Shown here: positions 17,805-64,000 of the stretch, piece after piece
Position numbering within the stretch: position 1 is the first letter of the stretch
Layout of the letters: every line of letters begins with the position of its first letter
DNA from: Octopus vulgaris
Lineage: Eukaryota
Length of the DNA stretch: 64,000 bases
Direction of reading: 5' to 3'
Assembly: GCA_951406725.2 (NCBI GenBank)
Contig: OX597818.1
Location: 42,470,001 to 42,534,000, forward strand
The notes under the pieces: generated by a model
The model's database searches: none
What the model was told of the DNA's origin: nothing
What the model saw: the letters and a program-made list of their open reading frames with translations, nothing else
Program-made: the position numbers and the translations under genes

Positions 17805-18101
17805 TATCACCGTGATCACCGTGACCAACCTGGCTATCAGGTGTTGGTACACATCACTGGTCACAATGTGCTTCGCATTGTTTTAGCCTTCACTGGCTAA
17901 GCGAGCAGGCCAACAGAAGAAAGAGTGAGAGAAAGTTGTGGTGAAAGAGTACAACAGGGATAGCCACCACCCCCTGCTGGAGCCTCGTGGAGCTTTAGGT
18001 GTTTTCGCTCAATAAACACTCACAACGCCCGGTCTGGGAATCAAAACCACGATCCTACAACTGCGAGTCTGCTGTCCTAACCACTGGGCCATTGTGCCTT
18101 C

Positions 18102-18105
<4 letters not shown>
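17805..18105 (-). mobile_element. tRNA-derived SINE family B with an alternative 3' end
   Basis: Head matches 38315-38500; the 3' part (17805-17915) differs. Confidence 0.8.
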
Positions 18106-29223: not shown

Positions 29224-29876
29224 GTACAGTAATCCCTCACCATGGAGGCACAATGACCCAGTGGTTAGGGCAGCAGACTCGCAGTTGTAGGATCGCGGTT
29301 TCAATACTCAGACCAGGCGTTGTGAGTGTTTATTGAGCGAAAACACCTATAACTCCATGAGGCTCCGGCAGGGGATGGTGGTGAACCCTGCTGTACTCAT
29401 TCATCACAACTTTCTCTCACTCTTTCTTCCTGTTTCTGTTGTACCTGTATTTCAAAGGGCCAGCCTTGTCACACTCTGTGTCATGCTGAATCTCCCCCAG
29501 AACTACGTTAAGGGTACACGTGTCTATGGAGTGCTCAGCCACTTGCATGTTAATTTCACGAGCTGGCTGCTGTGGAGTGCGCAGCCACTTGCACGTTAGT
29601 TTCATGAGCAGGCTGTTCCATTGATTGGATCAACTGTAACACACATCGTCGTAACTAACGGTTAACCTATTACAGTTCACCTATCATGGTTCACCTGTTG
29701 CGGTTTATTATTTAAGCTTATGTCAATTATTCTGTGGTGTAATTTTGCATTTATAATAAAATAAATACATACAAATAAAAATAATTTTAAAAAATACAGT
29801 ACAGTACTGTTTCTACTTTGTGGATTTTCACCTGTTTTGGAATGTAACAACTGCGATAGTCAAAGGATTACTGCAT
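29224..29876. mobile_element. Tigger/pogo-like MITE interrupted by a SINE
   Basis: Ends tacagtaatccctc and aaggattactgca; SINE B inserted at ~29240. Confidence 0.6.
29240..29660 (+). mobile_element. SINE family B
   Basis: Matches 38315-38697, with an internal ~40-bp duplication. Confidence 0.88.
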
Positions 29877-38314: not shown

Positions 38315-38697
38315 GTGGAGGCGCAATGGCCCAGTGATTAGGGCAGCGGACTCGCGGTCGTAGGATCGCGGTTTCGATTCCCAGACCGGGCATTGTGAGT
38401 GTTTATTGAGTGAAAACACCTAAAGCTCCACGAGGCTCCGGCAGGGGGTGGTGATCCCTGCTGTACTCTTTCACCACAACTTTCTCTCACTCTTACTTCC
38501 TGTTTCTGTTGTACCTGTATTTCAAAGGGCCGGCCTTGTCACTCTCTGTGTCACGCTGAATATCCCCGAGAACTACATTAAGGGTGCACGTGTCTGTGGA
38601 GTGCTCAGCCACTTACACATTAATTTCACGAGCAGGCTGTTCCGTTGATTCGGATCAACCGGAACCCTCGTCGTCGTAACCAACGGAGTGCTTCCAC
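38315..38697 (+). mobile_element. SINE family B (tRNA-Arg-like head) with 11-bp TSD
   Basis: A box tggcccagtga, B box gtttcgattcc; TSD atgatgcatta at 38304-38314 and 38698-38708. Confidence 0.92.
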
Positions 38698-38924
38698 ATG
38701 ATGCATTAATACAGTTTTATATTTAAGAGATGAGAAATTATGTACAGTATTTACATTATTTAAATTTGACAGATATTTGTCCTCATCTTGTTTGTTGTTA
38801 ACACGTTTTGGCTGATATACTCTCCAGCCTTCATCAGGTGCCTTGGGGAAATTTAGAACCTGGGTTCTCATTCCTGAGGTATTTTTTGATGTTGTTATTA
38901 TTATCATTATTATTATTATTATTG

Positions 38925-39170
38925 GCATCCTTTTCATCTCGGGAGACAATGGAGTTGCGCATTAAATAATCAAGTCCGGTTTTTACATTTCATCTTTTTA
39001 CATTTCATAATACATCTCCTGCTGTGGCTGTATAGTCCTATCCTGGACAAAACACTCCCTCTAGCAGGTGCTGCAAATGTAGCGAAGACTTTGCTTGGCT
39101 GGTTGTAACGTCATAGTTTCTTGTTGCCGTCTTTTCTTGTCTTTCCATTTCTCCCCCCTCCCTCTGTCAC
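38925..39170 (-). mobile_element. RTE LINE 3' end inserted in the (TTA)n of the left unit
   Basis: KWKDKKRRQQE...YICSTC*REC..SRIGLYSHSRRC. Confidence 0.7.
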
Positions 39171-39437
39171 TCATTATTATTATTCAGGTCACTGCCTGGA
39201 ATCGAACTTGGAATCTTGGGGTTAGTAGCCCACACTCTTAACCACTATACCTTATGCCCATGGGCATATGGCATAGTGGTTAACAGCACGGGCTACTAAC
39301 CCCAAGATTCCAAGTTCGATTCCAGGCAGTGACCTGAATAATAATAATGATAATAATAATAAGAAGAAGAAGAAGAAGAACAACAACAACATCGAAAAAT
39401 ACCTTAGGAAAGAACCCAGGTTCGAAATTTCCCCAAG

Positions 39438-39481
39438 ACACCTGATGAAAGCTGGAGGGTATATCAGCTGAAACGTTGTGT
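39438..39481 (+). ncRNA. Minimal type I hammerhead (mirror copy 38801-38841, minus)
   Basis: ACAC-CTGATGA-a-AGCTG gagggtatat CAGCT-GAAACGTT-GTGT; the mirror has GGCTG/CAGCC but a G12A change. Confidence 0.75.
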
Positions 39482-39698
39482 TAACAACAAACAAGATGAG
39501 TACAAATATCTGTGAATTGTAAATAACGTAAATACTGTGTGATACATTAATTTAATTAAAAATGATTTCATAAACAGAAATTATATTCCATATTTTGGAA
39601 GTTCGTGAGTCAAGAGAGATAAAAATCTCATTAACAAGTAACATTGTATAAGCACACACCTGCAAAGGCTGTCCAGAGAAAAAGACAGGACCTACAAA

Positions 39699-46964: not shown

Positions 46965-47437
46965 ATCAAATTCGATGACTGGCATCCGTGCTAGTGGAGC
47001 ACTCTAAGAGTACCATCCGAGCGTTATTGTTGCCAGAGCAACAAGCTGGCTTCCATGCCAGTGGCATGTAAAAAGCACCATTCGAGCGTGATCATTACCT
47101 GCATCGCCTTACTGGCACTTGTACTGGTGGCACGGGAAAAAACATTTCAGTGAGATCGTTGCCAGTGCTGCTGGACTGGCTCCTGTGCAGGTGGCACATA
47201 AAAAGCACCATTTGAGCGTGGCCATTGCCAGTACCGCCTGACTGGCTCTCATGCCAGTGGCACATAAAAGCACCCATTACACTCTTGGAGAGGTCGGCAT
47301 TAGGAAGGGCATCCAGCTGTAGATGCTCTGTCAGATCAGATTGGAGCCTGGTGCAGCCATCTGGTTTGCCAGACCTCAGTCAAATCGTCCAACCCATGCT
47401 AACATGGAAAGTGGACGTTAAATGATGATGATGATGA
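46965..47437 (+). mobile_element. RTE 3' UTR-derived repeat with internal tandem subrepeats
   Basis: Repeated gccagtggca..taaaaagcaccatt units; (GAT)n tail. Confidence 0.85.
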
Positions 47438-51688: not shown

Positions 51689-52793
51689 TGTAACCTGGTT
51701 GTAACCAGGTCACCAATTTCAGCTCATCATAAAAATTGAAAATGGAAAGGAGAAAATAGACTTGCAAGTTTAACTTCATGTTTATTGAACAAGAGAAATG
51801 TAAAATTTAAGATGTGACTTGTTCTAATATACATGTCTGAAGGAGTCATAACTGAGCATGACACAAATCCCAAAGAATTGGTAATACATACTTTAAAGTG
51901 TTCTATAAAGAGAACATAAGATTGCTGCATAATTCAGCATGAAAGAGGAATGGCATTTATGTCGTGTAAGTTAACAAATATTTAGTAGAGGCGCAATGGC
52001 CTAGTGGTTAGGGCAGCGGACTCGCGGTCGTAGGATCGCGGTTTCGATTCCCAGACCGGGCGTTGTGAGTGTTTATTGAGCGAAAACACCTAAAGCTCCA
52101 TGAGGCTCCGGCAGGGATGGTGGTGATCCCTGCTGTACTCTTTCACCACAACTTTCTCTCACTCTTACTTCCTGTTTCTGTTGTACCTGTATTTCAAGGG
52201 GCCGGCCTTGTCACTCTCTGTGTCACGCTGAATATCCCCGAGAACTACGTTAAGGGTACACGTGTCTGTGGAATGCTCAGCCACTTACACGTTAATTTCA
52301 CGAGCAGGCTGTTCCGTTGATCAGATCAACCGGAACCCTCGTCGTCGTAACCGACGGAGTGCTTCCATCCATCCATCCAACGAATACTTCTAAAGGAACA
52401 CTGAAGTCATATTCACTTAGTGAGTTCATTGTGCCAGGATGTTTTAGGAAGTTGACAGTGTCAGCGTTGGATGTCGAAGTCTGTGTGCAAGCTCAACTCC
52501 TCAGCTGAGTAAAACTGCTCTGTTTAAAGAAACTGGTAGGCTACAAAAAAGAGATGAAAGTTTTTTTTGCCAAGAGAACACGTGATCCATTATAGTGCAT
52601 CTGATTAGTTGACCGTGTAATTTGGCGCAATTGTTTAGGGGACAATTTGCACCTAAAAACTAACCAATCAGAACAATGGTTACAAGCTGGTCTTTATAGC
52701 TAAGTGTTCTCTACTATGTCCAAACAACAACTATAATTCCCAGTGAGAGAAAATAATTTGTTTTCTTTTATTTTGTCAATCCATTCAGCTACA
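51689..52793 (-). mobile_element. Solo LTR-like insertion (TGT...ACA, 4-bp TSD GGAT)
   Basis: Removing it restores the transposase frame GFRYDPKEWR; TSD at 51685-51688 and 52794-52797; minus-strand AATAAA at 51781-51786. Confidence 0.8.
51985..52378 (+). mobile_element. SINE family B inside the LTR, (CCAT)n tail
   Basis: Matches 38315-38697. Confidence 0.92.
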
Positions 52794-52919: not shown

Positions 52920-53322
52920 TGCGTGATCGTTGCCAGTACAGCTAACTGGCTTCTTTGCCAGTGGCACATAAAAAACACCATTCGAGTGTGATCGTTACCA
53001 GCGTCGCCTTACTGGCACGTGAAAAAACATTCGAGTGAGGTCGTTGCCAGTGCCACTGGACTGGTTCCTGTGCAGGTGGCATGTAAAAAATACCATTTAA
53101 GTGTGACTGTTGCCAGTACAGCCTGATTGGCCCTCGTGCTGGTGGCATGTAAAAACACCCACTACACTCTCGGAGTGGTTGGCATTAGGAAAAGCATCCA
53201 GCTGTAGAAACTCTGCCAAATCAAGATTGGAGCCTAGTGCAGCTATCTGGTTCGCTAGTCCCCAGTCAAATCATCCAACCCATTCTAGCATGGAAAGCAG
53301 ACATTAAACGATGATGATGATG
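52920..53322 (+). mobile_element. RTE 3' UTR-derived repeat inside Chapaev3
   Basis: Matches 46965-47437. Confidence 0.85.
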
Positions 53323-63702: not shown

Positions 63703-64000
63703 TCATCATCATCATCATCATTTAGCGTCCGCTTTCCATGCTAGCATGGGTTGTACGGTTCAACTGGGGTCTGTGAAGCCAGAAGGCTGCATCAGGCCCA
63801 GTCTGATCTGGCAGTGTTTCTACGGCTGGATGCCCTTCCTAACGCCAACCACTCTGTGAGTGTAGTGGGTGCTTTCTACGTGCCACCCGCACAGGTGCCA
63901 GACGGAGCTGGCAAACGGCCACGGACGGATGGTGCTTTTTACATGCCACCAGCACGGGGGCCATGCGAGGCTGGCAACGGCCACGATCGGATGGTGCTTT
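63703..64000 (-). mobile_element. RTE 3' UTR-derived repeat (truncated by window end)
   Basis: (CAT)n, then tttagcgtccgctttccatgctagcatggg. Confidence 0.85.

Follow-up and report, generated by a model that had tools for sequence, protein, structure and literature searches.

Introduction

The octopus tRNA SINEs OR1, OR2 and OK were reportedly described by Ohshima and Okada in 1994; like the element analysed here they have tRNA-derived heads, and those of OR1 and OR2 originate from tRNA-Arg.

Hammerhead ribozymes, inverted copies, tails and non-autonomous derivatives have all been described for Penelope-like elements (PLEs), as has the combination of a Pol III promoter with a hammerhead in SM-alpha, in the available portions of the literature with which we compared our element (PMC4209133, PMC8557442, PMC6765202, PMC7229834, PMC13282606, PMC10886601, PMC4758252, PMC4824008, PMC8490949, PMC6962438, PMC8967140, PMC12910113, and bioRxiv 10.64898/2026.07.22.740005). 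Opposite-strand hammerhead pairs 100-700 bp apart have also been noted in Schistosoma, according to the same portions. The published repeat survey of O. vulgaris reports 190 Penelope-like families, and its available text mentions neither hammerhead nor ribozyme. Some repeat library may well already list the family described below, classed as a Penelope or as a SINE.

Results

An inverted pair of Penelope pseudo-LTRs

The window analysed here is a stretch of 64,000 nucleotides from Octopus vulgaris (contig OX597818.1, positions 42,470,001 to 42,534,000), and window positions are counted from its first letter. It contains an inverted pair of pseudo-LTRs (pLTRs), each arm being the 3′ end of a coding retrotransposon of the Penelope/Poseidon type. 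As the preliminary description had proposed, two units are joined head to head; the centre lies at 39260/39261, with 93% complementarity over 90 nt, and the outer arm pairs are at 82% and 92%. The palindromic junction (39254..39267) is the native PLE hairpin, GCCC-AC-GGGC, with its loop decayed to AT, and is a recurrent junction of the family.

The right arm, on the forward strand, begins with a tRNA-derived head (39262..39337) whose first base, G1, is 39262 and whose A and B boxes lie at 39269-39279 and 39313-39323. A (TAA)n/(AAG)n/(AAC)n linker (39338..39390), the length of which differs among copies, leads into the pLTR body of the Penelope element (39385..39538), which ends at the tail-less 3′ boundary and includes a minimal type I hammerhead motif (39438..39481) with a predicted cut after 39477. 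On the reverse strand, the left arm comprises a head (39184..39259), a pLTR body with a broken hammerhead (38742..38896; CTGATGA at 38837-38831) and, in this arm only, a tail of 33 nt (38742-38710). The A and B boxes, (TAA)n linker and hammerhead originally ascribed to each arm are therefore all present in the right arm, whereas the left has a broken hammerhead and a changed A box. The one-armed tail, first put at about 30 nt, was correctly recognized, and we can add that it is of the same kind as the first bases of the PLE ORF region 3′ of the pLTR. No target-site duplication was seen by eye at the ends of the window element. This copy is an old, half-broken insertion.

Two features of the left arm had been overlooked: its dead ribozyme core, and a later insertion of 253 bp (38918..39170, reverse strand) within the TAA linker, flanked on both sides by a 14-bp duplication (38904-38917 and 39171-39184). 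The inserted DNA comes from the 3′ end of a different repeat, which has at least 1,906 first-look candidates in the genome. Longer copies of that repeat encode a reverse transcriptase (RT; PF00078 match), and from its motifs we take this LINE to be RTE-like.

The unit is the pLTR of a coding Penelope element

Translation of the sequence 5′ of the head gives the end of a Penelope-type endonuclease in L026 as well as in the partner arm of L021. A search with endonuclease-end DNA alone returned 30 loci, in 29 of which the head lay directly downstream, the remaining one stopping at the hairpin; under a stricter motif test the head start was found in 28 of the 30, mostly 29 nt after the stop codon. 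When a foreign protein of 40% identity served as query, only the same family was retrieved, with the head in 12 of 12 loci (four of them re-fetches). Walking upstream revealed an ORF region of ~2.3 kb with an RT domain (PF00078; E 3e-10 and 4e-08), and the C-terminal endonuclease motif VYSIPCSCG..YKGET..EEH..DH could be read in copies. The Pfam GIY-YIG model gave no match on the pieces scanned; protein relatives, including the two named ones from Octopus sinensis (73%) and Octopus vulgaris (82%), carry PF26215. The RT domain, the motif as read and the PF26215 homologs together give the order of an EN+ PLE, in which RT is followed by a C-terminal GIY-YIG endonuclease with CCHH in a single ORF. 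All copies of the coding element are broken by stops or frameshifts.

At the other end of the element, a search with the 5′ end of the ORF retrieved eight loci, and in all eight, as in L069, L075, and L087, body and tail directly precede the ORF start; the unit is therefore a pLTR, and what appears as the tail is where the ORF region opens. A 3′ end repeated before the ORF, as well as an inverted 5′-truncated partner and a 30-40 bp tail at one end, are further features that the family shares with EN+ PLEs. The CX2-5CxxC zinc finger of Neptune and Nematis was absent, by eye, from the RT-EN linker of L052, L053, and L059; since this finger is what separates those two groups (available sections of PMC8557442), the element is by this criterion of the Penelope/Poseidon type. 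A reading frame starting at an ATG 5′ of the hammerhead in L069 crosses hammerhead and tail and continues into the ORF, open over the 100 codons examined.

These results strongly support the earlier suggestion that PLE machinery, rather than a LINE, mobilizes the unit, as a coding PLE partner exists and contains the whole of it. A PLE with the same 3′ end had been anticipated; the partner is indeed there, but what was thought to be a common 3′ end is the partner's own pLTR.

Several other loci deserve mention. L009:1501-2180 (+) carries a complete head-bearing pLTR from -2 followed by the ORF start, an arrangement in which the head could drive a coding RNA. L205 (oriented 1344-2017) is a deletion derivative in which body, tail and 200 nt of ORF are joined to head, body and tail; the result is a small non-autonomous element that carries two tandem hammerheads. 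L013:1100-1480 (+) and L186:2631-3101 (-) are fragments of other Penelope-like families, with linker and GIY-YIG carrying an extra cysteine motif, and one of them directly abuts a copy of the octopus pLTR unit. Seven proteins from other assemblies (P0001-P0007) are ~60% identical, versus ~40% for most PLEs, and horizontal transfer is possible. A metagenome scan found no related PLE loci, and a PDB sequence search gave no match.

The head is derived from a tRNA

At an 80% threshold, ARAGORN called 22 of 76 family heads as tRNA, compared with 2 of 760 shuffles, and by this measure the head resembles a tRNA more than chance would allow. At the default setting none of the 76 was called, and acceptor and T stems pair poorly; the head thus no longer folds as a proper tRNA. 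Scans of the window with default ARAGORN and at the Rfam gathering threshold gave no match, and Rfam found neither tRNA nor hammerhead at its gathering or E-value thresholds, so that such libraries miss these motifs. Compared with 33 typable tRNA genes of the same genome (34 were fetched, covering few isotypes only), the head was closest to tRNA-Arg(TCG), with 40 of 64 ungapped identities and colinear from position 1. As Ala, Thr and Arg(TCT) tRNAs scored nearly as high, its isotype is uncertain.

A head with A and B boxes is what a tRNA-derived SINE would have. The other properties of such a SINE, namely that it be non-autonomous and separate from its partner, with a LINE-derived 3′ end and target-site duplications, were not found in the unit, whose partner is a PLE containing it entire. 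The SINE of the preliminary description therefore keeps its tRNA head and loses its status as a separate entity. The same description had allowed that head and hammerhead segments might occur independently of one another; in an even sample of the genome this was not so, all seven head-bearing loci also carrying the body.

Short copies probably derive from a Pol III transcript

The even sample consisted of sixty 10-kb stretches at fixed positions (600 kb) and contained eight loci, none with ORF sequence, seven with a head and six inverted. Extrapolation from these eight loci gives ~37,000 loci genome-wide (95% range 16,000-74,000). A search with the full unit returned at least 4,001 candidates, of which 40 were scored, and first-look searches with the endonuclease end, the RT and the ORF start gave at least 2,662, 476 and 368 candidates, respectively. 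Short copies that start at the head far outnumber those bearing the ORF, a contrast that rests on the eight loci plus rough candidate counts. Inversion, scored together with tandem arrangement as earlier envisaged, was frequent: besides the six of eight above, an inverted partner was found by BLAST in 17 of the best 30 full-unit loci. Neither set contained a head-to-tail tandem array of whole units. Short copies thus carry the insertion marks of their parent, inversion and the one-sided tail.

Their 5′ ends are clustered. The best 30 full-unit loci, chosen by similarity to the full unit with no selection against upstream ORF, contained 45 head matches, of which 33 begin at -8 to -1, 12 begin inside the head, and two run into the ORF. 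Solo copies without inversion also end at -2 to -6. All five copies checked lacked a T4 run inside the unit. The GCCC-AC-GGGC hairpin is weak (-3.5 to -8.9 kcal/mol as RNA, -1.0 to -3.2 as cDNA). The 5′ end lies at the distance from the A box that is expected of a Pol III start.

We consider it probable that the short copies of the family to which the inverted pLTR pair belongs arose as Pol III transcripts from the pLTR head, inserted in trans by the RT and GIY-YIG endonuclease of the parent. Initiation would occur just before the head, at about -6 to -2; the parental enzymes would copy and insert the short RNA, and the two arms would be joined through GCCC/GGGC hairpin pairing. This reading is favoured because of the fixed 5′ end at A-box distance, the weak hairpin, the lack of T4 in the unit and the steep excess over ORF-bearing copies. 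Against it stand the missing pile-up of RNA starts, RNA reads that are equal on both strands, a step in RNA depth at the head edge of just 2-3 fold, a head without a proper tRNA fold, the small sample behind the copy-number contrast, the choice of the best 30 loci by similarity to the full unit, and hammerhead stems that do not covary. That the unit is "self-transcribing", as the preliminary description had it, we likewise infer from the clustering of 5′ ends.

The main rival is plain 5′ truncation, whereby long Pol II RNA is reverse transcribed, the RT stops or folds back at the hairpin, and the head is a passenger piece of SINE in the 3′ UTR. Strong 5′ truncation, inversion and tails are usual in PLEs (available sections of PMC8557442), the recurrent junction falls exactly on the hairpin, and RNA-seq showed no Pol III transcript. 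We nevertheless regard this account as unlikely. A stalled RT should leave ends at the 3′ foot of the hairpin, but copies end on its 5′ side, and the hairpin is weak; solo copies, which have no inversion, end at the same place; and copy numbers fall far more sharply between unit and ORF than they do within the ORF.

The head might instead act as a processing signal: the long PLE RNA would be cut there by RNase P or a comparable nuclease, and the RT would copy the short product. This too would give a fixed 5′ end, and the head is colinear with tRNA from its first position. RNase P would cut at +1, whereas the copies cluster at -2 to -6, and acceptor and T stems pair poorly; we accord this explanation only a very slight probability. 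Nearly as improbable, in our judgement, is an independent tRNA SINE that merely borrows a PLE 3′ end, or amplification through self-cleaved tandem RNA as in SM-alpha or retrozymes. SM-alpha has the same two modules (available sections of PMC6765202), and a short master copy could have freed itself from the PLE; yet the coding PLE itself contains the head, and copies run past the cut site and are inverted or solo, without head-to-tail arrays. Transcription by Pol III from the pLTR head remains our preferred origin of the short copies.

How the two arms come together was addressed at 13 hairpin junctions, in none of which both arms had a tail. Where loop and tail were both readable, the tail was on the arm with the non-native GT loop in six of six cases (four by pattern, two partial tails by eye); two further junctions had no tail. 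Over 14 pairs, the arms share 8 of about 76 non-CpG changes versus 3.4 expected by chance (P 0.006), most arm changes being later private mutations. A tail on one arm only is more easily explained by two cDNAs primed separately than by a simple fold-back, although the arms share slightly more changes than expected by chance, so that either origin may apply.

Other repeats occur beside or within these units. A different, very abundant tRNA-headed SINE of ~385 bp is present in the window at 38315-38700 (+), where it adjoins the element on the left, and also at 51985-52367, 29243-29661, and 17912-18103; it gave 35 BLAST matches in the 600-kb sample. A 580-bp repeat with 19 matches in the same sample inserts specifically into (TAA)n runs, including the linker of the Penelope unit (L020:2003-2580, L053, L075, L124, and others). 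Related tandem units of 49-66 nt at window positions 47061-47274, 52962-53064, and 63868-64000 probably belong to a further dispersed repeat.

The hammerhead is inherited from the parent element

The right-arm motif consists of a short stem I (ACAC/GTGT), CTGATGA (39442-39448), an extra A, stem II, GAAA (39470-39473) and the palindromic AACGTT, with GUU at 39475-39477. It thereby has each part of the PLE minimal hammerhead (CUGANGA, an unpaired base, stem II, GAAA, a palindromic minimal stem III, UH and a short stem I), an architecture that matches the one in the available sections of PMC4209133. Core and stems are kept in 57 of 103 family copies. The left arm fails, GAAA having become AAAA at 38809 and the GTT cleavage triplet having been deleted, and only the right arm of the pair has an intact motif.

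Stem II had been noted to differ between the two arms and yet to pair in both; we reject a compensatory change and attribute the difference to chance. The first pair of this stem is G-C in 61 of the 103 copies, G-T in 25, an A-C mismatch in 10 and A-T in only one, and its C sits in a CpG. No covariation was found in the hammerhead stems, and core positions are just slightly more conserved than other sites.

Self-cleavage of single copies is doubtful, because minimal hammerheads did not cleave in vitro as monomers (available sections of PMC4209133), copies extend 60-90 nt beyond the predicted cut site, and RNA ends do not pile up there. For the same reason that copies run past the cut, the template for insertion would be uncleaved or rejoined RNA. 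The hammerhead is inherited from the parent, and cutting would need a dimer; when two hammerheads were cofolded as RNA, a stem III dimer was not favoured over other pairings.

Among deletions in the body, loss of the GTT cleavage triplet is the most frequent (11 exact and two shifted cases among 103 copies; the next most frequent occurs five times). As the 14 carriers have no common diagnostic change, we rejected the deletion as a subfamily trait. An RT jump over a ribozyme cut, through GT microhomology, would explain the loss, as would slippage; the deletion is at most an indirect hint of cutting.

RNA-seq and terminators

About 6% of each of three raw RNA-seq runs from a related organism was aligned to an ORF-linked copy, together with one contig set. 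The family is present in RNA, equally on both strands, and the reads resemble transcripts that pass through embedded copies. Neither starts nor ends of RNA accumulated at any position in the three runs, whose libraries are ill-suited to showing Pol III starts. At the palindromic junction, 400, 310 and 314 reads leave the reference into an inverted head; loose read ends mark this junction and the two 3′ boundaries, which are thereby confirmed as family features in a second organism. Depth over the hammerhead region exceeds that over the endonuclease end 4-6 fold, part of the latter coming from reads with one common loose end.

On the coding strand, 69 kb of aligned copies hold 19 T4 runs, none at the same place in more than three of about 40 copies (P 0.07-0.13 against base shuffles). 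Stop-free natural pieces (858 codons) have no T4, versus 2.7 expected by synonymous shuffling (P 0.03), and an overlapping second set has one versus 4.3 (P 0.04). Among controls, an RTE had four versus 6.4 expected (P 0.17) and another PLE fragment three versus 2.0. A coding strand without shared T4 terminators lends weak support to the idea that the whole element might be transcribed by Pol III.

A more far-reaching reading, tentative and in our view rather improbable, joins these points: an autonomous Penelope would have switched to a Pol III promoter, the head of the upstream pLTR driving both a SINE-like RNA and a 2.7-kb coding RNA; two RNAs would be held together by the palindrome of their hammerheads and be inserted jointly, giving head-to-head dimers; and the GUU deletion would be the scar of an RT jumping a ribozyme cut in vivo. 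It is suggested by the lack of a common T4 on the coding strand and by the pLTR ATG in frame through the hammerhead.

Discussion

The feature is real: the pLTR of a Penelope element bears a tRNA head and behaves in the manner of a SINE. It joins, in one family with a known coding partner, three things usually described apart, namely tRNA SINE heads, PLE pLTR hammerheads and retrozyme-like non-coding copies, and shows a route by which a SINE-like element can arise inside the terminal repeat of the very element that moves it. With copies in the tens of thousands and junctions that are fixed, the family offers a large natural data set on how PLEs come to form inverted pairs with a tail on one side only. 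The "tRNA SINE" component of octopus genomes may in part be Penelope-driven.

In the openly accessible literature we found no report of a tRNA-derived promoter in the pLTR of an autonomous Penelope, or of this element in a cephalopod. OR1 (PMC4824008) and OR2 (PMC4758252) are cited as CORE-SINEs in the available parts of those papers, whereas the body of the octopus unit is PLE sequence; by description, then, they appear distinct from it.

In Schistosoma SM-alpha and Sj-alpha, too, a type I hammerhead comes after a promoter of the Pol III type. SM-alpha occurs as tandem repeats, its hammerhead is canonical and active, and the available sections of the review name no coding partner (PMC6765202); the octopus copies, in contrast, are solo or inverted, have a minimal hammerhead, and have a coding partner that contains the whole unit. 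Non-LTR retrozymes (PMC7229834; bioRxiv 10.64898/2026.07.22.740005) are, according to the available text, non-coding, carry a type I hammerhead, and have been proposed as PLE pLTR derivatives moved by PLE enzymes. They are defined by head-to-tail tandems and circular RNA, and the octopus unit lacks the tandems; the available text of the preprint mentions neither "tRNA" nor "octopus". Cassandra, Helenus and Ajax likewise place the Pol III promoter of a small-RNA gene within the terminal repeat of a retroelement (available sections of PMC10886601). Those are non-autonomous LTR elements; in the octopus family the repeat in question is a Penelope pLTR, and the promoter is present in the autonomous element as well.

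Also close are the known Penelope pLTR hammerhead elements, which, in the available sections of PMC8557442, share the RT with a C-terminal GIY-YIG-type domain, the pLTR, the inverted 5′-truncated partners and a one-sided tail of 30-40 bp. Their hammerheads are alike as well, being of minimal type I with an unpaired base before stem II and a palindromic 15.2-16.2 pair. Where those sections discuss pLTR promoters they link them to an intron, and a tRNA head is not mentioned. The octopus element differs in having a tRNA-derived head with A and B boxes in its pLTR, 29 nt after the stop codon, and it is at this head that most genomic copies start.
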